Positions 9,421 through 55,628 of a stretch of 64,000 nucleotides of DNA are shown one piece after another. Each line of letters starts with the position of its first letter. Position 1 is the stretch's first letter. The position numbers and the translations under genes are program-made. Under the pieces are notes generated by a model. It was given only the letters and a program-made list of their open reading frames with translations, was not told the origin of the DNA and did no database searches. This stretch comes from Candidatus Parcubacteria bacterium. Lineage in GTDB: Bacteria; Patescibacteriota; Saccharimonadia; UBA4664; JBIOIQ01. The stretch spans positions 477,373-541,372 of the forward strand of contig OY970378.1 of assembly GCA_963718875.1 (NCBI GenBank), written 5' to 3'.

Positions 9421-9540
9421 CGCTTTCTAAGTGCGCTCTACAGGATCACTCCTGCGGCTATGCACTCCGCGTACCTAGTGTACGTCTCGCTTGCGTTGCT
9501 CGTCGTTCTTTGCAGTGCATCACTTAGAAATCCTCTATGA
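9421..9540. repeat. palindromic repeat family, copy A
   Basis: Shares the core ...cactccgcgtacc...gtacgtctcgcttgcgttgctcgtcgttctttgcag... with the copies at 10196, 51181 and 55491. Confidence 0.55.
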
Positions 9541-9574
9541 AGATTGCTTGCTCTTTTGTTCGCCAAGGGTGTTC

Positions 9575-9850
9575 ATCTTTTTCCAATGTCGTCCCGACAC
9601 CTTGCCTTGATTAAGATAGGTACCACCAAACTGTCAGTACTTTTTATTTTTAGCTCTTTAGTCCAGCCTAAGACCGTTTGAGATGATTTATGTCTTTTTT
9701 GGTGTTATCTCAAGTTTATGGCATTCAAAGTCTAAGTTCTGTAGCGAGGGTAACTTATAATCCTTTTGGCTGCCTAAGGTAGTACTTTGACTACTGACAG
9801 TTTGGTGGTGCCTAGTTAAAACACCACCAGTGGATGTGTCTGGTTGATAC
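9575..9850. mobile_element. MITE-like element, copy 1 (internal 22-bp terminal inverted repeats GGTACCACCAAACTGTCAGTAC)
   Basis: Its reverse complement matches 26831-27085 almost base for base. It has internal TIRs and no ORF. Confidence 0.7.
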
Positions 9851-10002
9851 TTTTATAAATGGTATTCGTGATGAATCCCGGCGTTAATTTAAAGAGAGCT
9901 CAAGGCCATTAAAAAGCCACCGTGAGCTCTTTGAAGATCCATTTCGCTACTTAAAAGTATGGCCGTTTTTCGTTTAAGTGGACAGAACCGAAGCCTTTGT
10001 GC

Positions 10003-10031
10003 TTGACAGGCTTAATGGGTTTCGCTAATAT
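10003..10031 (+). promoter_or_regulatory. consensus sigma70 promoter TTGACA-N17-TAATAT
   Basis: TTGACA at 10003-10008 and TAATAT at 10026-10031. Confidence 0.6.
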
Positions 10032-10038
10032 AGCATTC

Positions 10039-10140
10039 ATGAAGTCTCAAAAAATGTGTGTACAACTAACCACGACTCGCCGACAAGCTTTGGCTCTTGG
10101 CGTTTTAATTGTGGCCGCACGCAGTGAGAGGCTTTTGTAA
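10039..10140 (+). CDS. putative leaderless 33-aa hydrophobic peptide (MKSQKMCVQLTTTRRQALALGVLIVAARSERLL); the unit could instead be an sRNA
   Basis: The ATG lies ~8 nt downstream of the -10 hexamer with no Shine-Dalgarno. A terminator hairpin follows at 10168-10195. Confidence 0.3.
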   Translation: MKSQKMCVQLTTTRRQALALGVLIVAARSERLL

Positions 10141-10167
10141 CTTTTCCTAAAGAGTAGAATTTTTGCA

Positions 10168-10195
10168 AGAGCCTCCAACCGGAGGCTCTTTTTAG
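10168..10195 (+). terminator. rho-independent terminator (agagcctcc-aacc-ggaggctct + TTTTT)
   Basis: Perfect 9-bp stem followed by a T-run. Confidence 0.7.
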
Positions 10196-10322
10196 TTTTA
10201 CAACTTACGTACTTGGCACATTTCTGCGGCAGCACTTGTGTTTCTCGCTCAACGTACTTTCGTGTACGTCTCGTTGCGATACTCGGTGCTTTCTTGAACT
10301 GTACTCAAGTGCATAAGTTGTA
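10196..10322. repeat. palindromic repeat family, copy B
   Basis: Its ends aacttacgtacttggcacatttc...actcaagtgcataagtt form an imperfect long palindrome, closely matching the copy at 55491-55628. Confidence 0.6.
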
Positions 10323-10335
10323 AGAATAGCGTTAT

Positions 10336-10411
10336 GGGGACTAGGTGTCTGGGCTATGACACGTCTTGCATTATCGGTGCAAGGAAGGAGGTTCAAATCC
10401 TCAAGTCTCCA
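10336..10411 (+). tRNA. tRNA-like element (non-canonical; possible pseudo-tRNA or integration-site remnant)
   Basis: 7-bp acceptor pairing (GGGGACU/AGUCUCC). T-arm GGAGG-TTCAAAT-CCTC. D-arm GUGU/ACAC. Anticodon arm with a 7-nt loop UUAUCGG. Three extra nucleotides between the D and anticodon arms, and no encoded CCA. Confidence 0.35.
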
Positions 10412-10419
10412 CTGCAGTA

Positions 10420-10890
10420 CCTACCAAAACCAAAAAAGGGGAAAGTAGTGAGAAATTCTGTTCGAAGCCTCCCTGGATGGACCACCTGTTCTCTTCACTT
10501 TGGGGCGAGTTCTATCGCAGAAGCTCGGGTGAAAGCTCTAGGGTTGGTGGGCATGGCCGATGACGCCTCAGTTAAGGCGGCATTAAGGGGCTGGACCATC
10601 AGGCAGGTGATAGTTCGGGATGAGCGTTTCATCGCTTTGGTCGCAGAGCTAGAAGTTCTTGGAGTACATCTCAAAGAAAAGGGCGTTCCGCGCTCGTGGA
10701 GGGTCTCGAAAGAAGAAGCTTCAACTCTCGCTGCTCAGTAGTACAGGGAGTCGTCCATCTGATGGGAGGAAGCCCAAACAGGGTGGACAAGGGTGCTGCA
10801 AAAAGTTTTAAAGTTGGCGATCCTAACTTTGAGACTTGGCCTCCGAAAGACGTGATAACAGCGTGTCTTTTGGGGGCCTTACCCATGTTA
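10420..10890 (+). other. GC-rich (~55-58%) foreign-looking segment with protein-like but fragmented frames (e.g. MADDASVKAALRGWTIRQVIVRDERFIALVAELEVLGVHLKEKGVPRSW)
   Basis: GC content is elevated. Overlapping ORFs on both strands with no clean gene; it sits beside the tRNA-like element. Confidence 0.35.
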
Positions 10891-10900
10891 TAATTTACGT

Positions 10901-11162
10901 CATGATAGCCTACATTTTGTACAATAAAGATACCCCAATGGAGCGCGATGTACGGTATTTTGCCAAGCGTCTCGAATCGTTACAGGTGCAAAGCAAACTA
11001 GTTGAAGCCGATTCAGTTGAAGGAATTAGTTTTACGGAAAATTATGACTTACTTGCTCGACCGTCGCTTGTTTTAGCTACAGACAATGGCGTACTTATTG
11101 AGCGTTGGCAGGGTGAGCTACCTTTGGTGGAAAATGTAAGTTATTTGGCTCACCAATCGTGA
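10901..11162 (+). CDS. hypothetical small protein (~87 aa)
   Basis: ORF with native AT-rich composition; no recognisable motif. Confidence 0.4.
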
Positions 11163-11227
11163 CGCAAAAATGCTCTTGTCGCTCAATGGGCTGTCCCGGC
11201 AAGTACTTTCAAGAAAGTTGGTCGTAG

Positions 11228-11500
11228 GTGAGCCAGTTTGTAAGCATTCTGTTAGTGTTTTTTAACTTATTTGTTATTGCCTTTAATGCTATTTTGATTA
11301 TACGGATTGTTGTAAGCTGGATTATGCCCGACATGCAGGCAAATTGGTTTGGTCGCTTATTGATTGATACAACTGAACCAATATTGGCACCGGTGAGGAA
11401 AATTTTACCGGGGGGTGGAATGATTGATTTGGCGCCGATGGTGACAATAATTGGTCTTTACGCCTTGCGAACATTGATATTTAGTTTGCTATTTCGCTAG
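11228..11500 (+). CDS. yggT: YggT family membrane protein
   Basis: SWIMP...TEPILAPVRKILP...IDLAPMV pattern typical of YggT. Confidence 0.75.
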   Translation: MSQFVSILLVFFNLFVIAFNAILIIRIVVSWIMPDMQANWFGRLLIDTTEPILAPVRKILPGGGMIDLAPMVTIIGLYALRTLIFSLLFR

Positions 11501-11534
11501 CAATGCGTCATTATGTGGGTACAAAGTAAAAGCG

Positions 11535-11715
11535 TGTCGACTAAATGACAAGTGGTTATCAGCCACTAGCTAGCGAGAAGAACAGCAAGCTAATTGCCTA
11601 CTAGACCTTGCCGGTGTGCCCCGTAAGAGCACAAATGAAGTGTCCATCTGGATAAGCAGGGTGGTACCTCCCGTTAGAAGTAATGGGACCCTGCAAACGG
11701 ATGGTTTTTTTATTG
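11535..11715 (+). promoter_or_regulatory. T-box leader upstream of ileS
   Basis: T-box-like AGGGTGGTACC. A terminator/antiterminator helix (ACCTCCCGTT...AACGGATGGT) plus a U7 run lies just before the ileS start. Confidence 0.55.
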
Positions 11716-11728
11716 TAGGAGATGAAGA

Positions 11729-14700
11729 ATGAAAAAAGTCGAACAAGCTAACTTTCCCGAATTTGAGCAAGAGATGCTTAAAATATGGGATAAGGAAAAG
11801 ACTTTTGAACAAAGCCTAGAGCTACGAAAAGGATCCAAGCGGTTTAGTTTTTACGATGGGCCTCCTTTTGCTAATGGCCTGCCACATTATGGACACGTTG
11901 TAGCAATCACCGAAAAGGATTCGATGACACGTTACAAAACTATGCGTGGGTATTTTGTGCCTCGCCGGAATGGTTGGGACACTCATGGGCTACCGGTAGA
12001 GTATGAAGTCGAAAAACAGTTAGGTATTTCAGGGAAAAAACAGATACAGGAAATGGGAGTAGATAAGTTTAATGAAGCCGCCAGGGCCAGTGTCTTTAAA
12101 TACAAAGAGCATTGGGAAGATTTTATGACTCGTATTGGCCGATGGGCCGATAAAAACTCGTATGCTACTTTGGACGATAGCTATATTGAAAGTGTTTGGT
12201 GGGTTTTAGGTCAGCTTCATGAAAAGGGTTTGATATATCGAGGATTCCGCTCTAACCCGTATTGCCCACGATGCGCCACTCCTCTTTCTAATTTTGAGGT
12301 GAACCAGAATTATAAGGACAATGTGTTGGACCCAAGCGTTTTTGTGAAGTTCGCTTTGGTTGAAGATCCGAACACAAGCCTGCTGGCTTGGACGACGACT
12401 CCATGGACGCTTCCGGCCAATGCGGCTTTGGCTGTTGATTCGGCGGCTGAATACGTGACGGTAGAATTGTTGGCGGATGGTGATGGTTGGGAAAAGGGGG
12501 AGAAGCTGATACTCGCGAAGAAGCGGATTGGTGAACTGGATCTGAGGAAGGCTGAGTATAAGGTAGTTAAAACACAGCAGGGCAAAGAGTTAGTCAATAA
12601 AATGTACTCTTCATTGTATGACTTGGCGATGAAAAGGCCTCCCGTTGAGTGGTCAGGTGCATCCGAAGGTCAACCTGGCCGCCCCAGAGCCAACCAAGTT
12701 TATGAGGATGACTCGGTTAGTCTTGAGGATGGGACCGGTATTTTACATATTGCTCCAAGATATGGAGAAGCCGATCTAGATTTGGGCATTAGGGAAGACT
12801 TGCCACTAATAGAAAGCGTTGATGGTAATGGACTTATGGCGGAGTCTTTTAAAGAAATTTCCGGGCTTGAAGACATTGTCGGGATGTTTTTTAAGAAGGC
12901 TGACCCGTTAATTATCGAGGATCTAGCTAAAAAAGGTCGCATCTTTGCCGCCGAATCTTTTGAGCATACTTACCCGTTTTGTTGGCGCTGCGAAACGCCG
13001 TTGATGTATTTTGCTATGCCGAGCTGGTTTGTAAAGGTAACAGAATTAAGAGACAAGCTGGTGGCTAACAACGAAAAAATCAATTGGGTGCCTAAGCATA
13101 TTAAGACTGGTCGTTTTGGTAATTGGCTGGCCGAGGCGCGCGACTGGAATTTTAGCCGCAATCGGTTTTGGGGTGCGCCTATCCCAATTTGGGTTAATGT
13201 GGACGACGAAACTGACTTGATCATAATCAAGTCAGTCCAAGAGCTGGAAGAGCTTTCTGGAGTTAAAGGAATTGATTTGCATCGTCCGAGTATAGATGTG
13301 GTTATACTCGAGCGCGACGGCAAAACATATAAACGAGTGGAAGAGGTGTTTGACTGCTGGTTTGAAAGCGGGTCAATGCCTTATGCCCAAGATCATTATC
13401 CGTTTGATGATAAAGAGAATTTTGATGATAAATTTCCGGCGGAGTTTATAGCCGAAGGCTTGGATCAGACGCGGGGCTGGTTTTACACCCTCCATGTTCT
13501 TGGCACGGCTTTGTTTGACAAGCCGGCGTTTAAGAATGTTATTGTTCACGGAATGGTTCTGGCGGCAGACGGGAAAAAGCTTAGTAAAAGATTAAGAAAT
13601 TACCCTGAACCATCAGAAATTTTTAATGGGACTGGAGCTGATAGTCTAAGGTTTTTCCTTATGAGTAGCCCAGTTGAAAATGGCGAAGATGTTCGTTTTA
13701 GCTACGATGCAGTCAATGAAGTTAAGCGCAACGTCTTTATGACGCTATGGAACGTCTTATCCTTCTTTACGACCTATGCCGAAATTGATAAATGGAAACC
13801 GAATACAAAAATTGTACAGCCTAAATCAAATAATGTCTTAGACGAATGGATGCTTGTAAGGCTAAACCAAACAACAGCCATCATGACGAAAGCGGCGGAT
13901 AGCTACCAGATTTCAAAAGCCGTAGAACCTTTAAAGGACTTGATTGACGATTTATCCAATTGGTACGTAAGACGTAGTAGGCGAAGGTTTGCCAAGAACG
14001 AAAGTAAGGCTGATAAGCTTCAAGCATTTGAAACGTTGCACTACGTATTGTTGCGAACTTCACAACTACTTGCACCTTGGTCGCCGTTTGTAAGCGATAA
14101 GGTGTGGCGAATTATTACCGAGGGAATGGATATTCCCCGCTCTGTGCATTTGAGTGACTGGCCGGAAGTTGGAGAAATTAGTAATGGAATATTACTCAAT
14201 GACATGAAAGAAATGCGTGATTTAGTTACCGAAGGTTTGGCTCAGAGGGCGGCAGCAGGAATTAAGGTGCGCCAGCCTTTAGCAGATGCACGATACGCAG
14301 GCAAAAAGCTGGATGATAGGTTAGTTGAAATTGCGGCCGAAGAGCTCAACGTCAAGCGACTTATAAATGACCCCACAGAAGAGGAAATTTCAAGTCGATT
14401 TGAAAAGATTGTTCCCGGTTCGACTGGTTTCAAACATGAGCCAGGGTTGCCGTCCAAACTGGTTTCCGTAAGTCGATTGGATAATCTTGTTGATCAAGAT
14501 TCTGGTGTCGAACAACTTGAAGAAAGTTTGAGTATAAAAAAAATAATATTGAATACTGAAATGACTCAAGAGTTAAAGCTGGAAGGCTTGGCGCGGGATC
14601 TTATACGCCAAGTGCAAGTTGCGCGCAAAGAGGCCGATCTTCAAGCCAATGACGTCATAAATCTGCTACTTGGAGTTGAAGGCGAGGCTGCAGAGGCGGC

Positions 14701-14830
14701 AAAGGCTTATGCTGAGATGATAGGCCGCGAGACTCTTGCCCAAGACTTTAAGGTCAGTAACATTGATCCGAGTGTTGTTCCGATACGGTTGGCGGGACAC
14801 GATATTACAATTGATTTAAGTAAGGCCTGA
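11729..14830 (+). CDS. ileS: isoleucyl-tRNA synthetase
   Basis: HIGH motif (PHYGHV), KMSKS-like KLSKRL, and CP1 editing-domain length. Confidence 0.95.
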   Translation: MKKVEQANFPEFEQEMLKIWDKEKTFEQSLELRKGSKRFSFYDGPPFANGLPHYGHVVAITEKDSMTRYKTMRGYFVPRRNGWDTHGLPVEYEVEKQLGISGKKQIQEMGVDKFNEAARASVFKYKEHWEDFMTRIGRWADKNSYATLDDSYIESVWWVLGQLHEKGLIYRGFRSNPYCPRCATPLSNFEVNQNYKDNVLDPSVFVKFALVEDPNTSLLAWTTTPWTLPANAALAVDSAAEYVTVELLADGDGWEKGEKLILAKKRIGELDLRKAEYKVVKTQQGKELVNKMYSSLYDLAMKRPPVEWSGASEGQPGRPRANQVYEDDSVSLEDGTGILHIAPRYGEADLDLGIREDLPLIESVDGNGLMAESFKEISGLEDIVGMFFKKADPLIIEDLAKKGRIFAAESFEHTYPFCWRCETPLMYFAMPSWFVKVTELRDKLVANNEKINWVPKHIKTGRFGNWLAEARDWNFSRNRFWGAPIPIWVNVDDETDLIIIKSVQELEELSGVKGIDLHRPSIDVVILERDGKTYKRVEEVFDCWFESGSMPYAQDHYPFDDKENFDDKFPAEFIAEGLDQTRGWFYTLHVLGTALFDKPAFKNVIVHGMVLAADGKKLSKRLRNYPEPSEIFNGTGADSLRFFLMSSPVENGEDVRFSYDAVNEVKRNVFMTLWNVLSFFTTYAEIDKWKPNTKIVQPKSNNVLDEWMLVRLNQTTAIMTKAADSYQISKAVEPLKDLIDDLSNWYVRRSRRRFAKNESKADKLQAFETLHYVLLRTSQLLAPWSPFVSDKVWRIITEGMDIPRSVHLSDWPEVGEISNGILLNDMKEMRDLVTEGLAQRAAAGIKVRQPLADARYAGKKLDDRLVEIAAEELNVKRLINDPTEEEISSRFEKIVPGSTGFKHEPGLPSKLVSVSRLDNLVDQDSGVEQLEESLSIKKIILNTEMTQELKLEGLARDLIRQVQVARKEADLQANDVINLLLGVEGEAAEAAKAYAEMIGRETLAQDFKVSNIDPSVVPIRLAGHDITIDLSKA

Positions 14831-14873
14831 TTCGGGTCGGCTTGATGCATAAAAAGCTGTACAATATACGGTA

Positions 14874-15983: not shown

Positions 15984-16013
15984 AAATTTATAAAACACTG
16001 GCTTTGTTTTTTT

Positions 16014-16022
16014 TGATATAAT
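16014..16022 (+). promoter_or_regulatory. extended -10 promoter (TGaTATAAT)
   Basis: TGnTATAAT motif directly upstream of the GC-rich block. Confidence 0.4.
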
Positions 16023-16028
16023 CGAGGT

Positions 16029-16534: not shown

Positions 16535-16834
16535 ATGCAAGCAATTATCACCACTGGTGGCAAACAATACATCGTAGCCAAGGACCAAACTCTAGAGGTA
16601 GAGTTATTGGGCGAAGTCAAAAAACTTGAATTTGACGTACTTATGACTATGGATGGGGATAAATTTCAAGTTGGCGCACCTTTTGTGGCTGGTGTTAAAG
16701 TAAAGGCCGAAGTGTTAGAGGAAACAAAGGGTGAAAAAATTAAAGTTTTAAAGTTTAAGGCGAAAAAGCGCGTCAAAAAGCTTACTGGCCACCGTCAGCA
16801 CTATTCCAAGATTAAAATCGTCTCCATCGGTTAA
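16535..16834 (+). CDS. rplU: 50S ribosomal protein L21
   Basis: MQAIITTGGKQY...; start taken at the ATG at 16535. Confidence 0.9.
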   Translation: MQAIITTGGKQYIVAKDQTLEVELLGEVKKLEFDVLMTMDGDKFQVGAPFVAGVKVKAEVLEETKGEKIKVLKFKAKKRVKKLTGHRQHYSKIKIVSIG

Positions 16835-16860: not shown

Positions 16861-16888
16861 AGTTAAGGCTCAAATATTGGATTGCTAC

Positions 16889-16917: not shown

Positions 16918-16953
16918 GGTGGTACCGTCAATCAAGCCTTAGGAGGCCGACGA

Positions 16954-17628: not shown

Positions 17629-18387
17629 TTGAGTAAGATAATTGCCATCACAAATCAAAAAGGTGGAGTGGGTAAGACTACTACGACTATTAATTTGGGT
17701 ACGTATTTGGCTAAGGCCAAAAAGAAGGTCTTGATTGTTGATCTAGACCCACAAGGCAATACCTCTAGTGGATTAGGAATTGATAAACAAAGCTTGAAGC
17801 AAGATTTGTACAGCGTGATGGTTGATGGCTTGGACCCAGGCAAAGTGATTATCCGTACGCCTTTTCACGGTCTTGAGGTTTTGCCATCAGCACCGGTTCT
17901 CGCGGCAGCTGAGCTAGAGCTGGTGTCGGCTCCGGCAAGGGAGTTTCGTCTGAGTAAGGCTATTCGAGAGCTTCCATACGATTACGTTTTGATTGACTGT
18001 CCTCCGTCACTAGGGCTATTAACTATAAATGGTTTGGTTGCGGCACATTCCGTGATGATACCCGTGCAAGCTGAATTTTATGCGCTAGAGGGTTTAGGGC
18101 AGCTTATTACAACAGTCCAAAGGGTTAAGAAAGCCTTAAATCCTAATTTGGACCTTTTGGGTGTGCTTGTAACCATGCATAATGGACGTACTACTTTAAG
18201 CACTCAGGTGCATGATGAGGTGAAACGGCATTTTCCCGATAAGATTTTTTCAACAGTCATTCCACGAAATGTTCGCTTGGCTGAAGCGCCTAGCTACGGC
18301 AAGCCGATTAGCCACTACGATAAATGGAGCAAGGGTGCTAAAGGGTATAAGCAGCTAGCGACAGAAGTGATTAAGCGTACGAAATGA
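17629..18387 (+). CDS. parA: chromosome partitioning ATPase ParA/Soj
   Basis: Deviant Walker A motif KGGVGKTTT. Confidence 0.9.
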   Translation: MSKIIAITNQKGGVGKTTTTINLGTYLAKAKKKVLIVDLDPQGNTSSGLGIDKQSLKQDLYSVMVDGLDPGKVIIRTPFHGLEVLPSAPVLAAAELELVSAPAREFRLSKAIRELPYDYVLIDCPPSLGLLTINGLVAAHSVMIPVQAEFYALEGLGQLITTVQRVKKALNPNLDLLGVLVTMHNGRTTLSTQVHDEVKRHFPDKIFSTVIPRNVRLAEAPSYGKPISHYDKWSKGAKGYKQLATEVIKRTK

Positions 18388-18543
18388 CGAGCTTGCAAGG
18401 TAAGAGCATTAAGTCTTTATGTCCGCGTTCGACCACAGGGAATTTTATTAGTCATTCTCTCTGTAACAAACAAAACTTGCATAGGCTTAATGTTTTTAAC
18501 CGCATAGGTTATACTTGAAGCATGAGCAGTACAGAGGCACGAT

Positions 18544-19446
18544 ATGGGAGGTAATAAAGGTTTAGGACGAGGGTTTGATTCACTAATACCTACGCAGTTG
18601 GTGGAGGAAGAGTTTGACCCGACTGCTAGCACGAGTAATAGCGAAGGGTCTAGACCTTCGGCCGACTCTATTTATCAAATTGATTTAAAGTTGGTGGATC
18701 CAAACCCGCACCAGCCGCGGTTAGTGTTTGATGATGCGGCACTAGACGAACTTGCTGCATCGATAAGACAACACGGCATACTACAGCCAATTATTGTTAC
18801 CGAACAAGGCGAGGGACGTTATCAGTTGATTGCGGGCGAGCGGCGTCTGCGAGCAGCGAAATTAGCGAGCCTTAAAACAATCCCTGGCATAGTGCGTAGT
18901 TTTACCGATCAACAGAAGCTTGAGCTGGCTTTGATTGAAAATCTCCAACGCCAAGATCTTAACCCTATCGAAACAGCCACAGCTTACCGTAAACTGGTTG
19001 ATCAATTTAACCTTACGCTAGACACTATTGGAAAAAAAGTTGGGAAGGATACTTCAACTATCTCAAACAGTATGAGATTGCTTAATTTGCCGCTTGAAGC
19101 CAAGAGGGCGGTGGCTAGCGGCCAGATGACTGAGGGGCATGGGCGGACGATTCTAACAGTTCTTAATCCTGAAAAGCAGCTGGTGTTATGTAGGATGATT
19201 ATTGCTAATGATTGGTCTGTGCGTCAAGCTGAGGAGTTTGCTCGCGGATTTAAAGAGCCGAGTGCAACAAAAGACACGGCTTTGAAAAGGATTGCCGAGA
19301 CCAATGAAGTTACCCAGTCTCTGAGTAACTATTTGGGCGCAAAGGTAACCTTGCGTCATACTGCAAGAGGGGGGCGTTTAACAATTGAATACTACTCTGA
19401 AGAGGAATTAGATCGCATTTACCGGGCGATTAAATCGGATAGCTAA
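18544..19446 (+). CDS. parB: ParB/Spo0J partition protein
   Basis: ParB box GERRLRAA and an HTH region. Confidence 0.9.
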   Translation: MGGNKGLGRGFDSLIPTQLVEEEFDPTASTSNSEGSRPSADSIYQIDLKLVDPNPHQPRLVFDDAALDELAASIRQHGILQPIIVTEQGEGRYQLIAGERRLRAAKLASLKTIPGIVRSFTDQQKLELALIENLQRQDLNPIETATAYRKLVDQFNLTLDTIGKKVGKDTSTISNSMRLLNLPLEAKRAVASGQMTEGHGRTILTVLNPEKQLVLCRMIIANDWSVRQAEEFARGFKEPSATKDTALKRIAETNEVTQSLSNYLGAKVTLRHTARGGRLTIEYYSEEELDRIYRAIKSDS

Positions 19447-26631: not shown

Positions 26632-26830
26632 GGATAGGAGTATATCAGGAAATCGCTCGGCAGGCAACATTAGTGGGTCTGGGTGCTGTCCACTTAAATG
26701 GAACGACCAAGCTTTTAAGTGGCGTAAATGGATCTTCAAAGCGCTCTCGGCGGCTTCTTCTTGGCCCTAAGCTCTCTTATAATTCCGGGAATCATCACTA
26801 ATGTCATCTCTAAAAGTATCAACCAGACAC

Positions 26831-27085
26831 ATCCACTGGTGGTGTTTTAACTAGGTACCACCAAACTGTCAGTAGTCAAAGTACTGCCTTAGGCAGCCAA
26901 AAGGATTATAAGTTACTCTCGCTTTAAAGCTTAGACTTTAAATGCCATAAACTTGAGATAACACCAAAAAAGACATAAATCATCTCAAGCGGTCTTAGGC
27001 TGGCCTAAAGAGCTAAAAATAAAAAGTACTGACAGTTTGGTGGTACCTGCCTTAATCAAGGTAAGATGGCAGGGCGACATAGGAA
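26831..27085. mobile_element. MITE-like element, copy 2 (inverted relative to copy 1)
   Basis: Reverse-complement match to 9575-9850, including the GTACTGACAGTTTGGTGGTACC ends. Confidence 0.7.
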
Positions 27086-38197: not shown

Positions 38198-38665
38198 CAA
38201 GCCATGAAAAAAGAATTTTATTTAACCGACGAAGGAGTTGTAAGACTCCGAGAAGAGTTGGCTGATTTAGTGCATAACAAGCGGGTAGAAATTGCAGCCC
38301 GTCTCAAAGAAGCAAAAGAATATGGGGATTTGAGTGAAAACATCCAGTGGGACGACGCCAAAGATCAACAGGCTTTTATAGAGGGTCGTATTGCTGAAAT
38401 TGAAAATATTCTTAAGCACTCTAGTAGAATTGAACATCCCAAAGGTTCTAGTGTGGTGGCTCTAGGGTCAACAGTGCACCTTGAGCTAGAAGATGGTGTT
38501 CAACGTTACGTTATTGTAGGCTCGACTGAAGCCAATCCGGAACAGGGAAGAATTTCAAATGAGTCTCCTATAGGCCAAGCGCTATTGGGTAAGAAACCTG
38601 GTGAAGAAGTTGAAGTCGAAGTGCCTTCTGGAACTCTTAAATACAAAATCACCAAAATCGAATAA
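38198..38665 (+). CDS. greA: transcription elongation factor GreA
   Basis: Coiled-coil N-terminus and FKBP-like C-terminus typical of GreA; start taken at the ATG at 38198. Confidence 0.85.
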   Translation, partial: QAMKKEFYLTDEGVVRLREELADLVHNKRVEIAARLKEAKEYGDLSENIQWDDAKDQQAFIEGRIAEIENILKHSSRIEHPKGSSVVALGSTVHLELEDGVQRYVIVGSTEANPEQGRISNESPIGQALLGKKPGEEVEVEVPSGTLKYKITKIE

Positions 38666-38891
38666 AACTTAATCTTTTGCGCACTTCGGCGTCGTAGCCT
38701 CTAGTTCGCATTCGGCGTATGTCTAATACGCCTCTTTCGTCAGCTGACGGATACGATCTTCGGTTCCTCCTTGAATTGCATCAAAACCTTAAGTTTCAAT
38801 AACAATGAATAAATAAAGTATTCAAGCATAAGCGTAATGAAAGGACCCCTACGAGGGTCCTTTCTCGTTATAGGGAGAATGGTTTGCTACA

Positions 38892-49995: not shown

Positions 49996-50813
49996 CTTCG
50001 AAACGAGTTGTTATTATAACAGGTGTGTCCCGGGGGATAGGCTTGGCTACGGCTAGGTTGTTTAGCGAGCAGGGCTGGGTAGTGGTGGGAACAGTGCGTA
50101 GCCATCCGTCCAAAGGTGATAATAAAGGCAAAAAATATCCACCTGAGCTGGCGGCTACGGCCATTGATGTGCAGATAGCGGAAATGACTAGTTTGACAGA
50201 TATAGAACGGGTGACAAAAAAAACCTTTACGACCTATGGTCGTATTGACGCTGTAGTGGCAAATGCTGGCTACGGTTTACTGGGGGCCTTGGATACCCTG
50301 GATCATGATCAGATTGTTGATCAAATTGCGGTTAATACTGTGGCTGTAGCTGATCTCGCTCGTGTCGTTTTACCAATTATGCGCAAACAAAAAAATGGTG
50401 TGGTTGTGGCCGTATCGAGCGTGGCGGGTCGTATAGGGTTCCCCGGATATAGCATATACAATGCCAGTAAATTTGCGATTGAGGGCATGTTTGAGGCGCT
50501 CAGCTACGAGGTGGAGGGCAGCGGTATTAGGGTCAAGTTGATAGAGCCGAGTACGGTTAAAACTGATTTTTGGGGTCCGAGCGCTCATTTTAGTAAAATT
50601 GTTAAAAATTACTGGACGCAGCGGACCATGAGACACGCACAGGGAGTTACCCGGGGGCTTTCGAGTGATGGGGTCGCTAAGGTGGTGTATAAAGCCGCAA
50701 CGGATAAAAAAGCTAAATTACACTACCCAGTTGGCTTGACCCGGTGGGGAGTACTGGTAAAGCGTTTTTTACCCGACCGTTGGTTTAGAGGCATTGTTAA
50801 GCGCTTTTTATAA
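49992..50813 (+). CDS. short-chain dehydrogenase/reductase (SDR)
   Basis: TGVSRGIG cofactor motif, NAG, YNASK catalytic motif. Confidence 0.85.
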   Translation: MTSKRVVIITGVSRGIGLATARLFSEQGWVVVGTVRSHPSKGDNKGKKYPPELAATAIDVQIAEMTSLTDIERVTKKTFTTYGRIDAVVANAGYGLLGALDTLDHDQIVDQIAVNTVAVADLARVVLPIMRKQKNGVVVAVSSVAGRIGFPGYSIYNASKFAIEGMFEALSYEVEGSGIRVKLIEPSTVKTDFWGPSAHFSKIVKNYWTQRTMRHAQGVTRGLSSDGVAKVVYKAATDKKAKLHYPVGLTRWGVLVKRFLPDRWFRGIVKRFL

Positions 50814-50963
50814 AGTTTAAATCTGTTGGCACATCCTCCTAAATTAGTTGGCATAGTGCTAGTAAAATTCGCTATAAAAGGTATAAAGTTTGTAATTGTA
50901 ACCAATTATACTTACCGTGTCATTGAATTTTAAAGCTTATGTTTAGCACAAGTACTAAAAGTA

Positions 50964-50992
50964 TTGACTTTAATTACTCAATGTGGTATATT
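50964..50992 (+). promoter_or_regulatory. sigma70 promoter TTGACT-N17-TATATT followed by a ~110-nt structured leader (15-bp enclosing stem GCGGGGATTTGTGAG/CTCACAAACCCCCGC, 51003-51110)
   Basis: Hexamers and the long-range stem were seen directly. Confidence 0.45.
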
Positions 50993-51180
50993 GAATTATC
51001 TTCGTTTTTTGCGGGGATTTGTGAGAGTGGCCAATGCCATATGGCCTTGATGCGAGAGTATCAAATAACTATTTTTCCGAACCGCTAAGATCGTTCGGCT
51101 CACAAACCCCCGCATTAAAGACGGCGACCTTTGACAGTCGAATAATCTAAGATCATTAGAGAAACGGCTTGCAACTTTGG

Positions 51181-51300
51181 CTTATTTCGTCGTTGCAGCT
51201 TGCGCTCCGCACTCACCGTACCATTAAGTACGGTTCGCTTGCGGTGCTCGCTGCGCCTAGAACTAAGTCCAGATTTGCAAGCCTTGCAAGAAGTACAAAT
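51181..51300. repeat. palindromic repeat family, copy C (upstream border of the GC-rich island)
   Basis: Shares gcgctccgcactc...ttcgcttgcggtgctcg with the copies at 9421, 10196 and 55491. Confidence 0.55.
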
Positions 51301-51512
51301 ACAAATCTAATACAAAATACTTGCTTCGCATTAACCTGCAAGCAGTTATTGTTTCGTTAACTAGGGGAGACCTATGATGTTAGCGAAACGTTATCTGCTT
51401 GCATGAAACTGTGCAAGCGAGGATTCGACACTTAGTCGAATTCAGTTGCTCTACCGAACATACAGAAACCACAGACCAGGGTGAGAACTCTGGCAGAGCA
51501 AAGGAAAAGACC

Positions 51513-52448
51513 ATGTCCGACCAGACCGGAGGACCCGGTACCACCGCCCCACCCCGCCGACCCACGCTCCAGGAGCTCGCCGACCAGGCGAGAGCCACGA
51601 TCGAGGAGCAGGCTCGACAGGCGAATGACCTCCAGGGTCAGCGCTCCGCCATCAACGCGATCAGCGGTCGAGTGGCGCAGCACGACGACGCCATCGCTGA
51701 CCTCCGGGACGCTTCGGCCCAGCAGGCCGACGCCGTGGACCGCCTCGGCCAGCGCACGCTGGTGGTCGAGGGACGCACGGACTCGTTGGAGGACTTGGCT
51801 CGCGCCAACGCCGCCGGCGTGGCCGGGCTGACCGCCAACATGGCTGACCTGACCACCAACGTCAACACGCTGGCCACCACGGTGGGCCAGCACGACACCC
51901 GTCTCGACGCCGTCGAGGACGCCGTGACGCCGGCCGCTATGCGGACGGTCGTCACCGAGGTGGTCGAGGAGCGCATGCGCGCTGTTCGGTTCAACTGGGT
52001 GGCCTTCGCCGTGGTGGCGATCGTGGGCTTCATCATCGACCTGTTGGTGTTCTCCGAGATGGGGAGCTTCAACAGCGCCGAGGCGCCGAAGCTCTCCAAG
52101 CACCTCACGGACGTCATGCACACGCAGAACTTCCTGGCCGTCATGCTCGTTGTCCTGGCCCTCGCCATACTCATCGCCCTCATCGTTCCGGTGGTCGGGC
52201 AGGACGAGCGTCCCAGGCAGGACCGCCAGCCCAGGCCGCCTCGGCAGCCCGGATCCGGCGGTGGTTTCATGGCCGGTCTTCGCAACGTTTGGAGGAGGGG
52301 TCGCGGTACGCCCGCTGCCACTGCGCCCATCCCGGCCAACTCCACGCCGGTGGCGACGACGAACCCGTCGGCCTCGTCCAACGCGCCCACTCAGGTGCTG
52401 CCGGCGGTGCCGACGTCCGGTCCGACGCCCTCATCGGGCAACCCGTAG
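51513..52448 (+). CDS. GC-rich (~68%) foreign gene: coiled-coil membrane protein with two TM helices and a Pro/Ser/Thr-rich tail
   Basis: AGGAAAAG precedes the ATG. GC3 ~90%. Ala/Asp-rich heptad-like N-terminal region, then two hydrophobic helices. The overlapping antisense ORFs are GC-shadow ORFs. Confidence 0.6.
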   Translation: MSDQTGGPGTTAPPRRPTLQELADQARATIEEQARQANDLQGQRSAINAISGRVAQHDDAIADLRDASAQQADAVDRLGQRTLVVEGRTDSLEDLARANAAGVAGLTANMADLTTNVNTLATTVGQHDTRLDAVEDAVTPAAMRTVVTEVVEERMRAVRFNWVAFAVVAIVGFIIDLLVFSEMGSFNSAEAPKLSKHLTDVMHTQNFLAVMLVVLALAILIALIVPVVGQDERPRQDRQPRPPRQPGSGGGFMAGLRNVWRRGRGTPAATAPIPANSTPVATTNPSASSNAPTQVLPAVPTSGPTPSSGNP

Positions 52449-52518
52449 TCCACGCGGTTCTTCAAGTGGATTGTCCCAATTCAAATACCTCCTAGCGTCA
52501 AGCAAAGAGGGAACAACC

Positions 52519-52549
52519 CTCTGTCCGCCCTTCGGGGCGGACAGAGGAG
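52519..52549 (+). terminator. 13-bp perfect hairpin (cctctgtccgccc-ttcg-gggcggacagagg)
   Basis: Seen directly, between the two island genes. Confidence 0.55.
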
Positions 52550-52647
52550 CAACTTTTACTTCCATGGATAGTAGTCCGCGTGAGAAGCAATTCTTACTCG
52601 GTTTCTGTTCATGGTGCAATCGGCACCCAAACGATAAGGAGGGTGCC

Positions 52648-53826
52648 ATGAGCACCAGAAGAGGTCCTGTTCTGATCATCGTGTGTCTGCTGATGGCAGC
52701 GGGGGCTTTGCTGTTCAAGTACGGCAACGGCCCAACGCCGGCAGTGGCACAGACGCCGCCCACGGTGCCCGTTTCGGACGTCTGCAAGGACGTCCCGGGC
52801 AACGTGCCGAGGTGGTTTGCCAAGGAGACCGACGGCAACAAGTTCGGTCCGGCGGCTCCGTTTGACCTTGGTCCCGCCAGGAAGGCTCAGCACGAGGTCC
52901 TGTGCCTCGACCCGGCCAACCTGGTGATCACCCAGGAGACCATCGACGGGAAGTTCAGCAGTCCGGCAAACCGGGCTGCCCGGACTCGCGTTCTCGTTGC
53001 CAACCCCACTGCGCGGTTGGCAGCGGTGGCCTATGTGCAGGCAGAGTTGGCCAAGGCCAAGGAGGTTCGGCTGGAGGTCCACACGGGACCCTACCAGACC
53101 TTCTACATGACCACCGACGGCGACGTGCCGGAGGTGTTCCAGTCTGCAGGGAGCTTCACCGAGGCACGGCACGTTCTCGTGTACGACTTCGGTAACGGTC
53201 GCACGGTCAACTTCGTACTGGAGTGCAACTTCCAGGGGGAGTTCCCCGGGCCGGTCAAGAACGTGCCGGTGGCAACGCCGGGCACTGTGCCGGCGCTGGT
53301 TCAGCCGGGGCCCACCAGCCCGCCGCCGACGACGTGCCAGTCGACCAACACCTGTTCGACCGTGACCAGCCCACCGCCCGTGTGCTGCGGACCGCCCCCG
53401 ACGACGTGTCAGGTCAACTGCGGTCCGCCCCCGACGACGTGTCAGGTCAACTGCGGTCCGCCGCCGACGACGTGTCAGGTCAACTGCGGTCCGCCGCCGA
53501 CGACGTGTCAGGTCAACTGCGGTCCGCCGCCGACCGTTTGCACACACAAGTGCGCGGGAGAGGACGTTGCGGTCAGTCCGAGTCTGGATCCTGTCGTTTC
53601 GGGACTGGCTGCGGGCAATGCCGCACCCACTGCGGTGGCAACACCGGTCGTGACGGCGCCTCCGGCGCCGCCTCCGCCCGTGACCACAGCCACGCCACCC
53701 GTGACGGCTCTGCCGTCCTCCGATGGCGTGGCAGCTCCACCGCCTGTAGTGGCTCCACCGTACGTGGCGCCCGATGCGGGCACTCCGTCCAACCCGACGA
53801 CGGGAACCATTCCGCCGCCGCCGTAG
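52648..53826 (+). CDS. GC-rich foreign gene: secreted/membrane-anchored protein with five CGPPPTTCQVN Cys-containing tandem repeats and a Pro-rich tail
   Basis: AAGGAGGG Shine-Dalgarno precedes the ATG at 52648. N-terminal hydrophobic signal/anchor. Repeats of 33 bp at 53386-53553. Confidence 0.6.
   Translation: MSTRRGPVLIIVCLLMAAGALLFKYGNGPTPAVAQTPPTVPVSDVCKDVPGNVPRWFAKETDGNKFGPAAPFDLGPARKAQHEVLCLDPANLVITQETIDGKFSSPANRAARTRVLVANPTARLAAVAYVQAELAKAKEVRLEVHTGPYQTFYMTTDGDVPEVFQSAGSFTEARHVLVYDFGNGRTVNFVLECNFQGEFPGPVKNVPVATPGTVPALVQPGPTSPPPTTCQSTNTCSTVTSPPPVCCGPPPTTCQVNCGPPPTTCQVNCGPPPTTCQVNCGPPPTTCQVNCGPPPTVCTHKCAGEDVAVSPSLDPVVSGLAAGNAAPTAVATPVVTAPPAPPPPVTTATPPVTALPSSDGVAAPPPVVAPPYVAPDAGTPSNPTTGTIPPPP
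53386..53553 (+). repeat. 33-bp tandem repeat x5 (ggtccgcc[c/g]ccgacgacgtgtcaggtcaactgc) encoding GPPPTTCQVNC
   Basis: Four near-identical copies plus one degenerate copy, seen directly. Confidence 0.85.
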
Positions 53827-54037
53827 GACACCACTTCTGCCCATTCGGGCAGGGGTCTACCCCAGGGTCTGGGGTGGTGCGCAAGCGCCACCCCGCCCTG
53901 TGGGTATACATATTCTTAATGATTTTGGATTATTCGATTGCTCCAAGGGTTAGTGCCCTTTAACATTTAGCGTCCAACTTAACTTGTAGATCATATTAAA
54001 TTCATTTTAACGTTCATTATTTAAAAGGAGAGCACAT

Positions 54038-55318
54038 ATGAAAGCTCAAATTCTCAAGCGAATTGCTGCTAGTGTTGCAGTGCTCGCTATCGGCCTGGTT
54101 CCTTTTGTTGCTGGCGCTGCTAGCAACTGGGGTCCTGCCCGTCCTGCTCTAACCTACAATGGCAACAACACTCCAGGTGCTGACCATGTAGTGTTTAACT
54201 CATTTACCAATAACCCTAACTATGGTGATGAGCGTGCGTTTTTTGATGGTAAGTCTGCCACTAACACCACAACTGGTGGTTACCAAGACACCATTAACGT
54301 AGATACTAATGGCGAATATCTGTTACGCATTTACGTTCACAACAATGCCGATCCTACGCTTAACGCTGGTGGTACCGGTATTGCTCGTAACACTAAAGTT
54401 CGGGTAGCTTTGCCGACCAATACAGATCGTAGCCTACGGGCCAACGCCTTTATTTCGGCTGACAATGCTAATCCAGGTACGGTGTTTGACTCAGTCGATT
54501 TCCAGACTACTGGAGCTTCAAACTTTGGTTTAAGCTATGTGCCTGGCTCGGCTAAAATCTACACTAATGTTACCCCCGCTGGCCGGGCTGTTAACGATAG
54601 TATCGTTGGCGCCGGTGCCCCTATTGGTTACGAAACCAACGATGGCAATATGCCTGGATGTTTCCAGTTTACTGCCTTCGTGACCTTGAAAGTTAGGGTT
54701 AACGCCCCTTTGTTAACGCTCAAAAAACAAGTTAAGTTAAACGACAGTGACGCTTGGACCTCAAGCGTTAACGCTAAACCCGGTGATTCAGTTTCATGGT
54801 TGATAACATTTAACAACACTGGAACTGCTCAAGTTGACAACATGATTGTCCGTGACCAATTACCTCCTCATGTAACGGTGGTCCCTGGATCAGTTATGTG
54901 GTTCGACACCCGCCGCCCTAATGGTCAACAGATGCCAGATGGTGCGCTGTTTACCACGGGAGGTATAAATGTCGGTAGCTACGCTGCTGGTGGTGGCGGT
55001 TACATCCGTTTCCGTACCACGTTGAACAATGACTTTACTGCTTGCAGTACAACCATTAACAACAACAGCTTTGTAAAAGCTACTAACATGCCTGAGATTT
55101 CAGCTTCAGCTGGAGTGGTAGTAACAAAGGTTTGTACAACTACAACTACTGTTACTCCTCCTCCTGTAGTGACCCCTCCTCCGGTAACCCCTCCCGCTCT
55201 TCCTGCTACTGGTGCCGAAGGTGCCTTAGCTGGAATATTCGGTACAGCCGGTATCGGTTACAGTCTGCGCTCATACTTGCGCAGCAAACGTGGCCTTATC
55301 GATTCTTTGAAACGATAA
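54038..55318 (+). CDS. LPXTG-anchored cell-surface protein (sortase substrate)
   Basis: Signal peptide. C-terminal LPATG followed by a hydrophobic stretch and a basic tail, after a TTTTVTPPPVVTPPPVTPP linker. Terminator hairpin at 55441-55475. Confidence 0.8.
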   Translation: MKAQILKRIAASVAVLAIGLVPFVAGAASNWGPARPALTYNGNNTPGADHVVFNSFTNNPNYGDERAFFDGKSATNTTTGGYQDTINVDTNGEYLLRIYVHNNADPTLNAGGTGIARNTKVRVALPTNTDRSLRANAFISADNANPGTVFDSVDFQTTGASNFGLSYVPGSAKIYTNVTPAGRAVNDSIVGAGAPIGYETNDGNMPGCFQFTAFVTLKVRVNAPLLTLKKQVKLNDSDAWTSSVNAKPGDSVSWLITFNNTGTAQVDNMIVRDQLPPHVTVVPGSVMWFDTRRPNGQQMPDGALFTTGGINVGSYAAGGGGYIRFRTTLNNDFTACSTTINNNSFVKATNMPEISASAGVVVTKVCTTTTTVTPPPVVTPPPVTPPALPATGAEGALAGIFGTAGIGYSLRSYLRSKRGLIDSLKR

Positions 55319-55490
55319 GCATCAAAGTCGAGAGTCGAAAGTTGTGAGCTGGGGTTTGTCCCTCACTCATGACTCAACACTCAAAACTCATGACGTTTAG
55401 GATCGGGGCTTGCCCCGTAACAGGCGCTTGCCGCAAAGCAAGTAATCAAAAAGACTCCCCATTGAACGGGAGTCTTTTTGTGTCTGAGGC

Positions 55491-55628
55491 AGAACTTACG
55501 CACGTGGCACATTTCGGCGCAAAGACTGCGCTCCGCACTCGTCCCCGGATCAAGTCCGGGGCAGGCTAGCGCTTGTTGCGGTGCTCGTCTTTGCATCCGA
55601 ACTGCACTCACGTGCGTAAGTTCTGGGG
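55491..55628. repeat. palindromic repeat family, copy D (ends aacttacgcacgtg / cacgtgcgtaagtt form a perfect 14-bp inverted repeat)
   Basis: Matches copy B end to end and shares the core with copies A and C. Confidence 0.6.

Follow-up and report, generated by a model that had tools for sequence, protein, structure and literature searches.

The window analysed here is a 64-kb stretch of a 1.19-Mb genome (Saccharimonadia, TM7), and five copies of a hairpin-forming repeat lie between or behind its genes, all on the + strand. Copy A (9416–9538, +) is an imperfect palindrome of 123 bp, ATAGACGC...CCTCTAT, with a partly decayed core, and it begins with the final A of the ftsZ stop codon (TGA, 9414–9416). 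Copy B (10198–10323, +) is a 126-bp palindrome, TTACAACTTACG...CATAAGTTGTAA, flanked by an intrinsic terminator (10167–10190) and a tRNA-like gene (10336–10412). The diverged copy E (38665–38796, +; 132 bp), whose core carries an insertion, follows the ORF encoding GreA, with the final A of the greA stop codon (TAA, 38663–38665) as its first base. Copy C (51166–51283, +) is a 118-bp palindrome with the consensus core, GGCTTGCAAC...TTGCAAGCC, located 350 nt 3' of a short-chain dehydrogenase gene and, according to the GC profile, immediately ahead of a GC-rich block. Copy D (55490–55625, +), a near-perfect palindrome of 136 bp, CAGAACTTACGC...GCGTAAGTTCTG, contains a 12-nt insertion beside the central hairpin; a terminator-like hairpin (55449–55483) precedes it and prfB begins 148 nt after it. 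The family occupies about 1% of the window sequence.

A covariance model (R1) was constructed with copies A to D as the seed. It matched copy A at 9419–9538 (+, 102.3 bits), copy B at 10199–10325 (+, 123.4 bits), copy C at 51163–51289 (+, 127 bits) and copy D at 55490–55628 (+, 98 bits). Copy E, which was outside the seed, was recovered at 38663–38801 (+, 53.4 bits, E = 1.1e-12), while the best unrelated match in the 64 kb reached 19.7 bits. These results confirmed the four clear copies and the diverged fifth that an earlier note had described, and also its claim of a single orientation, which holds for copy E as well. The common core that it reported (TGCGCTCCGCACTC ... TTGCGGTGCTCG) and the inverted termini common to copies B and D (AACTTACGYACKTGGCACATTTC ... 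AAGTT) were both found as described. The opposite strand of the same five loci scored 21–30 bits with R1, and therefore the element has polarity. Pairwise identity among the five window copies was 39–56%.

Each copy forms one long imperfect hairpin, whose two halves align as diverged inverted copies. Consistent with the folding that had been predicted, every window copy is an imperfect palindrome of 118–136 bp. The fold z-scores of the five window copies were -1.5, -5.0 (copy B), -4.9 (copy C), -8.6 (copy D) and -3.1 on the + strand, and ranged from -2.7 to -10.8 (copy D) on the - strand. The conserved inner core consists of CTGCGCTCCGCACTCA, a CGTAC hairpin and CTCGCTTGCGGTGCTCG, and includes fixed mismatches and an asymmetric internal loop. 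A second conserved box is GCACATTTY ... AACTGCAC. The outer stem is variable in sequence and is paired up to its ends, which are often TAG...CTA. Covariation across copies, one of the checks proposed in the earlier note, was quantified on 93 distinct copies: 92.1% of the cells were paired, compared with 65.3% in shuffles, and changes on both sides were observed in 31 of 32 pairs. The covariation score was 0.657, compared with 0.177 in shuffles and at most 0.139 in slid controls. Some members are decayed (A, E, L033:4630 and L065:1787). No coding capacity was found in the element.

The window repeats are thus copies of a previously uncatalogued, hairpin-forming interspersed element of about 125 bp. 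R1 gave 5 matches in the window, 48 in genome contigs and 64 in metagenome contigs, so the profile search that had been suggested from the four clear copies yielded the fifth window copy and about 110 more. The hosts include many Saccharibacteria, Uhrbacteria, Peribacteria, high-GC Chloroflexota, one Dormiibacterota MAG and one Eisenbacteria MAG, and the core is conserved in several phyla across genomes of 40% to 77% GC. Its near-identity between phyla is unusual for MITE-like elements and is partly a matter of ascertainment, because the collection scans demanded a 26-nt core pattern. In Rfam 15 no family reached the gathering threshold over the window copies or 18 other loci, and nothing was found around copies A and B even at E≤1. 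The phage, plasmid and E. coli collections contained no match to the element, and blastn of copy C against 5,426 complete E. coli genomes returned none at E≤0.01. Full-text searching of a literature library found no account of interspersed repeats in candidate-phyla bacteria.

The element is placed very regularly with respect to genes. The upstream ORF was co-oriented in 56 of the 71 low-GC copies for which one was called, and in 39 of these 56 the copy started within 6 nt of the upstream stop codon; the downstream gene lay 10–200 nt from the copy. The adjoining stop codon was TAG in 22/35 cases (63%), compared with 122/369 (33%) in the background (p = 7e-4), and the terminal TAG of the element often serves as the stop codon of the upstream gene. 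Outside the window, most copies are sited between housekeeping genes: after ftsA, after ftsZ, between secY and rpsM, and, in five genomes of five species, between the ATP-synthase a- and b-subunit genes. The whole stretch from a stop codon to the following ribosome-binding site is taken up by the copy, so a promoter would not fit on either strand. This does not support the suggestion that they are independent small-RNA genes giving discrete transcripts of about 120 nt, which we consider very unlikely even though the structure is stable and covarying and some copies adjoin tRNA genes. No sigma-70-like promoter was detected beside the window copies except an unrelated one at 10003–10031, coding sequence flanks the copies on both sides, Rfam gave no match, and the core sequence varies among copies that include decayed members.

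Comparison of related genomes showed that the element is polymorphic in presence. Copies A and B are missing from the closest relative, L173 (FtsZ 88% identical), and the site of copy A after ftsZ is also empty in L174 and L072. In L071 and L032 ftsZ is followed by a copy whose outer stems differ. At the site of copy B, L173 has just a 21-nt spacer, and the empty site (ttcTAag) is compatible with a TA duplication; copy D has no counterpart before prfB in two close relatives. In the Chloroflexia MAG CAWJUA01 the copies are mutually 77–93% identical, and in most pairs the similarity is confined to the 94–164-bp element. Tandem copies occur in L090, L033 and L068. Taken together, the non-coding, intergenic and hairpin-forming nature of the repeat, its variable presence among related genomes and the CAWJUA01 copies support the earlier proposal of REP-like elements.

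The earlier note had also placed the copies beside compositional discontinuities, and among its readings were sites of attachment or recombination through which foreign DNA is recruited. The siting held for copy C, which adjoins a jump to 58–65% GC at about 51.3 kb. It did not hold as located for copy D, which lies 1.5 kb past the GC-rich block and downstream of a gene of 47% GC, or for copy E after greA, where the compositional break is absent and no island adjoins; copy A comes straight after the ftsZ stop codon. Copies C and D are direct repeats bracketing a block with 2.7 kb of 58–65% GC DNA, an unrelated MITE-like repeat lies between copies A and B, and imperfect palindromes of about 120 bp with stop-codon overlap, one orientation and a better bottom-strand fold resemble attC sites. 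However, copies C and D are only 50% identical and have no crossover sequence in common, and hence they are not duplicates of the attL/attR type. The conserved R''/R' boxes (RYYYAAC...GTTRRRY) are absent, the termini vary with AAC...GTT in only a subset, no integrase was present among the window ORFs scanned, and most copies lie between core housekeeping genes. GC-rich blocks without any copy were found in two other Saccharimonadales contigs, one of which carries a homologue of the island gene while the other has GC-rich DNA upstream of the same prfB gene. An association of the element with foreign DNA is therefore not general, and the docking of foreign DNA at att or attC-like sites is already contradicted and retains a minimal probability.

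The orientation of the element follows the strand composition of the genome. Among loci of at least 4 kb, GC skew was positive in the element orientation at 51/55 (93%), and among rows with |skew| > 0.08 it was positive in 21/22. The agreement includes loci with opposed neighbouring genes (L025, L061, L124 and L130). The direction of the neighbouring gene agreed with the element in 79%, and few loci (about 6 versus 1) allow the direction of replication to be told apart from that of transcription. Because the element keeps one orientation with respect to both the G-rich (leading) strand and the genes, it is carried in 3' UTRs and intercistronic RNA. The gene-antisense, C-rich strand gave the stabler fold in 88/94 copies, with RNA and DNA energy parameters alike. 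In an alignment of 43 copies in antisense orientation, wobble pairs were common and A.C pairs were nearly absent, and the antisense-strand core had loops rich in purines, perhaps a tandem G.A pair, and an R-Y pair that covaries with G.U but not A.C among its variants. On the 32 modelled pairs G.T (116) and A.C (103) were about equal, which indicates that the strand asymmetry arises from the middle stem and the loops.

These data bear on whether the hairpin works for its host as RNA. A cis-acting hairpin in 3' UTRs and intercistronic regions, each copy kept by selection and not by mobility, could stabilise mRNA 3' ends, be a site of processing or, as an attenuator, set differential expression within operons, as the REP of E. 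coli malE-malF does in its operon. Copies run from the stop codons of co-oriented genes to 10–50 nt before the next start codon, A and E lie within the 3' UTRs of ftsZ and greA, and the element recurs where unequal expression is expected, as at ATP-synthase a/b in five species, ftsA, ftsZ and secY-rpsM. Compensatory change is also pervasive in spite of copies being about 50% identical. Against this role, the mRNA carries the less stably folding strand in those 88 of 94 copies, the pairing preferences of the antisense alignment point to the other strand, and GC skew predicts orientation better than gene direction does. In addition, the copies are dispensable, as A, B and D are absent at matching sites in close relatives; B and D lie 3' of separate canonical terminators, and a terminator scan found no site at the 3' foot of any window copy and no T-run after the hairpin. 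We regard a host-serving RNA hairpin as possible but rather doubtful.

The structure might instead act strand-specifically, as single-stranded DNA or antisense RNA inherited vertically in a Patescibacteria-Chloroflexota-Dormiibacterota group, for example as a hairpin of one template strand that is linked to replication, or by blocking antisense transcription. The skew agreement at opposed-gene loci, the better fold of the C-rich strand, the features of the antisense core and the conservation of that core from 40% to 77% GC in several phyla all favour it, and a tRNA gene pointing the same way has its 5' end directly against the antisense form at two loci in Uhrbacteria. On the other side, a promoter would not fit on the antisense strand, the modelled pairs include G.T and A.C in similar numbers, discordant loci are few, and an essential role is hard to square with the presence/absence polymorphism and with copies that have decayed. 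This makes such a function quite unlikely. Some rooted bacterial phylogenies group Patescibacteria, Chloroflexota and Dormiibacterota. An ancient, functionally constrained strand-specific hairpin (ssDNA at the replication fork, or RNA) more than selfish DNA, with the near-invariant asymmetric core as the putative binding site of a conserved protein, would span Patescibacteria (Saccharibacteria, Uhrbacteria, Peribacteria), Chloroflexota and Dormiibacterota, and it too appears unlikely.

With the family, its structure, distribution, placement, polarity and presence/absence polymorphism directly observed, the best explanation in our judgement, at a probability of about 55%, is a non-autonomous hairpin repeat of the REPIN/MITE/ERIC-like (also Correia-type) kind that behaves as a small mobile element. 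Its copies come and go in the time over which related species diverge, and they land in the few nucleotides 3' of a stop codon. It may move as a folded single strand, aided by an enzyme encoded elsewhere in the genome, for which the conserved asymmetric core would be the putative recognition site. Pairing could be kept because only hairpin-competent copies propagate, or through template switching, in which one arm is corrected from the other. Effects on mRNA 3' ends, if any, would probably be secondary. Several species keep copies at the same operon position, which counts against a mobile repeat. The divergent window copies give no hint that the element multiplied recently in this genome, and the intactness of their hairpins despite this divergence could equally mean host selection for structure. 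No clear target-site duplication was found; exact TA...TA ends occur in only 13/74 copies, and many copies show no duplication. No integrase or transposase was present among the window ORFs of at least 90 aa, nearly all of which were scanned; no recurrent transposase or RAYT-like ORF occurred within 2.5 kb of about 95 copies, and no ORF flanked by left and right half-elements in about 1 Mb of loci.

Candidate-phyla bacteria have tiny, streamlined genomes. Three traits of this family are unusual for such repeats: the multi-phylum core, the stop-codon abutment that often supplies the TAG, and the orientation along the G-rich strand. If the mobilising enzyme is found, the family would be a new model of strand-specific hairpin-DNA movement and could mark gene flow between epibionts and their neighbours. 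The covariance model can be used to mask or label the repeats in annotation, and the labelling prevents copies from being misread as island borders or small-RNA genes.

In Pseudomonas and Enterobacteria, RAYT transposases mobilise the REP doublets known as REPINs (PMC3116915, PMC3337134). The present element is similar in being a non-coding, extragenic hairpin of about 100 nt made from two imperfectly symmetrical inverted halves, in lacking a clear target duplication, in its possible long inheritance at fixed sites, and in forming a near-identical population in some genomes, here the Chloroflexia MAG. RAYT is a Y1 HUH transposase whose gene is usually flanked by REPs, whereas no RAYT gene was found here among the ORFs scanned in the window (64 kb of the 1.19-Mb genome) and in short loci. 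The element also differs in having no GTAG-type foot motif, with ends that are often TAG...CTA, in the low identity of the window copies, and in a core common to several phyla, REPIN families being lineage-specific. ERIC (or IRU) sequences of Enterobacteriaceae and Vibrio are imperfect palindromes of about 127 bp in transcribed intergenic regions, and no transposase is known for them, as for the present element. Size, imperfect palindromy, location in transcribed intergenic regions and operon 3' UTRs, and conservation across genera are alike. The present element has no sequence similarity to ERIC (5,426 E. coli genomes), and it differs in its start at the stop codon, its fixed orientation and its variable outer arms.

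Correia elements (NEMIS/CREE, Neisseria) and other TA-targeting MITEs are hairpin repeats of 100–155 bp beside genes and co-transcribed with them, and conservation in Correia elements lies in the terminal repeats. The present element is likewise a hairpin repeat beside genes, with paired terminal inverted repeats, some copies ending in TA...TA and an empty copy B site in L173 that fits a TA duplication. In contrast, the duplication is not general here, the inner core and not the ends is conserved, and there is a replication-strand polarity, which is not known for those elements. Integron attC sites, such as the Vibrio cholerae repeats of about 123 bp, are imperfect palindromes defined by structure over sequence. 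The size of about 120 bp, the position at the 3' end of ORFs with frequent stop-codon overlap, the single orientation and the better-folding bottom strand are shared, whereas the R''/R' boxes, integrase and cassette arrays are not, and the flanks here are core housekeeping genes. In palindrome-associated elements derived from IS200/IS605 (PATEs), which use HUH single-strand transposition, orientation is tied to the lagging-strand template; IS200/IS605-type elements have two separate subterminal hairpins and a fixed 4–5-nt target on the left flank. The present family resembles PATEs in an orientation tied to replication direction, in strand-specific hairpins with fixed mismatches and in the lack of target duplication. 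It differs from them in that a single hairpin spans its whole length and that the C-rich strand, which is not the lagging-strand template, folds better.

The covariance model R1, whose seed held copies A-D of the ~125-bp repeat and left out the fifth copy E, was searched against the entire window with its filters disabled. All four copies named in the earlier note were real, and so was the fifth, 'diverged' one. Copy A (palindrome 9416-9538) was matched at 9419-9538 with 102 bits, copy B (10198-10323) at 10199-10325 with 123 bits, copy C (51166-51283) at 51163-51289 with 127 bits, copy D (55490-55625) at 55490-55628 with 98 bits, and copy E (38665-38796) at 38663-38801 with 53.4 bits (E=1.1e-12); the palindrome limits were read from the sequence. 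All five lie on the + strand, in line with the direct orientation proposed before, and the termini reported as common to B and D are indeed so (AACTTACGYACKTGGCACATTTC...AAGTT). On the opposite strand the five loci gave only 21-30 bits, and the top unrelated site in the window gave 19.7 bits. Each copy folded into a single long imperfect hairpin. Pairwise identity was 39-56% among the five copies, which counts against a recent burst in this genome, and at most 69% to any other copy.

The conserved parts of the element were read from an alignment of 95 copies. The inner core consists of CTGCGCTCCGCACTCA, a short CGTAC/GTACG hairpin with a variable loop, and CTCGCTTGCGGTGCTCG; as read from the alignments, it holds fixed mismatches and an asymmetric internal loop. 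A second conserved box is GCACATTTY ... AACTGCAC. The middle stem occurs in two forms, one with a conserved GGCGTC / TCCTT internal loop and one continuous. The outer ~18 bp differ in sequence from copy to copy with pairing kept, and frequently end in TAG...CTA. Subfamilies have a common outer-stem consensus, for example TAGGTTTTACG... and ACGTACTTGG, which makes it less likely that an inserting element takes its outer stem from the target sequence. Among 93 distinct copies, standard pairs filled 92.1% of cells versus 65.3% in shuffles, both-side changes were found in 31 of 32 pairs, and the covariation score was 0.657 versus 0.177 in shuffles and at most 0.139 in slid controls. The alignment had been fitted to the model, and the result would be the same for either strand or molecule of a palindrome; these data thus indicate that the hairpin is maintained, not by what. 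Two known motifs were considered and rejected. The likeness of the central hairpin (CCGUAC...GUACGGUUC) to group II intron domain V is superficial and has no Rfam match, and the antisense core, by inspection, has two pairs between a 2-nt AA bulge and tandem G.A, which is not a canonical K-turn.

The distribution of the family was determined with a 26-nt degenerate core pattern followed by R1 confirmation. The GTDB species-representative genomes, which do not include the window's own genome, gave 70 pattern loci and 48 R1-confirmed matches, almost all full length. The metagenomes gave 64 more confirmed copies (80 of 100 pattern loci were searched with R1). By record title, the carriers are many Saccharibacteria/Saccharimonadia, Uhrbacteria, Peribacteria and one 'Patescibacteria group' MAG, together with Chloroflexia, Limnocylindrales, Anaerolinea and other Chloroflexota; one Dormiibacterota MAG and one Eisenbacteria MAG also carry the element. 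One copy (L015) is on CP025011.1, a Saccharibacteria chromosome sequenced to completion. Host GC ranges from ~40% to 77%. R1 did not support the pattern matches from Burkholderiales, Verrucomicrobiota, Halobacteriales and similar groups, which were regarded as chance. The core pattern matched nothing in 2.9 million viral contigs, and copy C as query matched nothing in plasmid, phage or E. coli collections. No Rfam 15 family matched the window copies or the copies in 18 other loci, and literature searches found no description of the family. By sequence, the element is outside every named family; by kind, it is distinguished by a conserved inner core with variable ends, cross-phylum spread, stop-codon abutment and strand polarity.

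Placement beside genes was counted only for hosts under 63% GC, a range in which simple ORF calling works; of the 74 copies in this set, 71 had a called upstream ORF. This ORF was co-oriented with the element in 56 of the 71 cases, and in 39 of these 56 the R1 match started within 6 nt of the stop codon. Pairing usually begins 0-7 nt after the stop or with the stop itself, and a co-oriented downstream gene is mostly 10-200 nt away. The adjoining stop was TAG in 22 of 35 adjacent ORFs versus 122 of 369 other ORFs at the same loci (Fisher p=7e-4), so the terminal TAG appears to be part of the element or of its target. Copy A begins on the final base of the ftsZ stop and copy E on that of the greA stop. 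B and D each come after a canonical terminator hairpin, and C lies 350 nt downstream of an SDR gene. Some sites recur among loci from other genomes and metagenomes (L-numbers): after ftsA (L014, L145), after ftsZ (the window, L071, L032) and in the secY-rpsM gap (L019, L053). In five genomes a copy separates the ATP-synthase genes for subunits a and b, at 240-300 nt from the end of the a-subunit ORF; the small c-subunit gene would fall below the ORF length cut-off used, and these copies are probably located just after it. Retention at this site in five genomes speaks for the main rival explanation, in which the hairpins are retained because they serve the host in mRNA 3'-end or intercistronic control. 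As primary cause we consider such control doubtful, since some copies are placed after terminators.

Some copies adjoin tRNA genes. In the Uhrbacteria MAG JAPLZK01, the antisense form of the element lies 0-2 nt from the 5' end of a co-oriented tRNA gene at L048:336-535 (Rfam), and at L054:2861-3030 it adjoins a tRNA-like sequence identified by eye. The antisense form would be part of the pre-tRNA leader at these two loci.

Comparison with relatives showed that copies come and go. The named relatives of the window FtsZ (8100-9416) are Candidatus Saccharimonadales/Saccharimonadia (TM7, candidate phyla radiation). In L173, the closest relative with data (FtsZ 88% identical), the ftsZ stop runs directly into the promoter of a small conserved ORF, and the site of copy B is only a 21-nt spacer; L173 therefore has neither A, B nor the unrelated MITE-like repeat of this region. 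Copy A is also missing in L174 (FtsZ 83%) and L072 (81%), and two relatives have no copy before prfB. This dispensability is a further point against mRNA control as the primary cause. L071 (FtsZ 80%) and L032 each have a copy directly after ftsZ, and its outer stems are unrelated; the left arm in L071 spans the final two ftsZ codons, to which its right arm is complementary. Within the Chloroflexia MAG CAWJUA01, copies share 77-93% identity over 94-164 bp, and in most pairs the similarity stops at the element limits. Decayed copies were also found (A, E, L033:4630, L065:1787). Comparison of copy B with the empty site is compatible with a TA duplication, which is not general across copies.

We favour, with a probability of about 55%, an interspersed repeat that forms hairpins, is non-autonomous and resembles REPIN, ERIC and MITE elements in kind. 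It would be served by a putative mobilising enzyme, and it inserts at or just after stop codons in an orientation fixed relative to replication and transcription. Such an element might move as a folded single strand, and its conserved asymmetric core could be the recognition site. Clustering of the ORFs within 2.5 kb of about 95 copies revealed no recurrent transposase-like ORF, and in about 1 Mb of locus sequence no ORF was flanked by half-elements. Tandem arrays of two or three copies, ~120-175 nt from start to start, occur at L090:13409-13862, L033:4630-4875 and L068:2790-3060 and are reminiscent of BIME clusters.

GC skew in the orientation of the element was positive at 51 of the 55 loci that span 4 kb or more; where |skew| exceeded 0.08 it was positive in 21 of 22 rows. 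These include loci whose neighbouring genes are opposed (L025, L061, L097, L124, L130/L102); one locus, L029, goes with its genes and against the skew. Orientation agreed with skew in 93-95% of cases versus 79% for the upstream gene. This is the pattern expected with replication strand as the primary correlate of element orientation; it is suggestive, since few loci separate the two. That + is the leading strand in the window follows from the cumulative GC skew, which climbs across almost the whole length, and from the genes, most of which are on +. A parA-parB pair is located at 17629-19446; together with the rising skew it suggests that the window lies on one replichore, probably near the origin. 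Six low-GC metagenome contigs with the element (Ga0123353/Ga0123354; L093, L074, L139, L108, L141, L125) have an extreme skew of 0.37-0.49 over 2-4 kb, far exceeding the ~0.2 of the window.

The two strands of the element also fold differently. The reverse complement, which is C-rich in its context and antisense to the neighbouring genes, was the better fold in 88 of 94 distinct copies, with mean energies of -61.4 versus -53.1 kcal/mol for the gene-sense form as RNA and -33.8 versus -29.2 as DNA. The weaker sense-strand fold again counts against mRNA control as the primary cause. When 43 copies were aligned in antisense orientation, wobble pairs were common and A.C almost absent, and one core pair covaried as A-U 15, G-C 13 and G.U 10. 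G.T and A.C were about equal on the 32 pairs of the + strand model (116 versus 103), which places the source of the asymmetry in the middle stem, the GCACA/UGCAC box and the loops. Base counts show that pyrimidines prevail in the gene-sense form (C 3643, T 3155, G 2879, A 2178). Mutation bias was rejected as the source of the asymmetry: deamination of an exposed G-rich strand would be expected to give G.T there, the opposite of what was observed. A strand-specific function of the element, as DNA or as antisense RNA, seems rather improbable to us. No promoter was found on the antisense strand, nor space for one, and an own antisense promoter was rejected as the flanks are coding. The proposal that the copies are small RNA genes is likewise unlikely.

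The earlier note also placed the copies at borders of foreign-looking DNA and gave attachment sites as one possibility. A Pfam scan covered nearly all of the 60 window ORFs of at least 90 aa and revealed no integrase or transposase. The ORFs identified are core genes: hisS, ftsA/Z, ileS, ftsW, parAB, prfA/B, rpsB, tsf, frr, mreBC, PBP, greA, lysS, serS, secA, murein ligases, ftsEX and pyrG. The block at 51.3-54.0 kb is 58-65% GC in a 45% GC genome and contains two ORFs (GC3 0.73-0.83), one for a coiled-coil membrane protein and the other for a secreted protein rich in Pro and Cys, in which an 11-aa unit (33 bp) is repeated five times in tandem (53352-53549). The block may be a module of distinct composition, possibly mobile or derived from a host. 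The only clear homologue of a block gene (41% identity) is in the Saccharimonadales MAG L175, in an equally GC-rich ~3-kb block where R1 found no copy. In the relative L177, whose RF2 is 75% identical, GC-rich blocks lie upstream of prfB at the same spot as in the window, and there is no copy in 11 kb. Copies C and D have no common crossover sequence. Thus the copies are ordinary intergenic residents, and their nearness to a variable spot is by chance. The attachment-site reading is unlikely. Integron attC sites were considered for their size, stop-codon overlap, single orientation and better bottom-strand fold, and were rejected: R boxes, an integrase and arrays are lacking, and the neighbours are housekeeping genes.

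Other features were observed near copies A and B. The MITE-like repeat is present at 9581-9886 and, inverted, at 26780-27085, with 92% complementarity over 306 nt; each copy has its own 22-32-bp terminal inverted repeats (GGTACCACCAAACTGTCAGTA...) ~150 nt apart, and the repeat is missing after ftsZ in L173. A compact unit 3' of ftsZ (10003-10190) contains a near-consensus sigma-70 promoter (10003-10031; TTGACA, 17 nt, TAATAT), a 33-codon ORF (10039-10140; MKSQKMCVQLTTTRRQALALGVLIVAARSERLL) and, at 10167-10190, a strong terminator. Inspection by eye showed the same promoter, MKSQ... peptide and terminator in L173, and in L072 a terminator with a similar MKYD... peptide. This unit may encode a small hydrophobic peptide or an sRNA. 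A tRNA-like gene starts at 10336; ARAGORN called it tRNA-Asp with an odd anticodon, ATC, and the Rfam tRNA model gave 22.9 bits (threshold 29). It is followed by ~0.5 kb of GC-richer DNA (to 10900) with no convincing ORF and no RNA-family match. At the equivalent site, L072 has, by eye, an apparent tRNA gene with a long insert.
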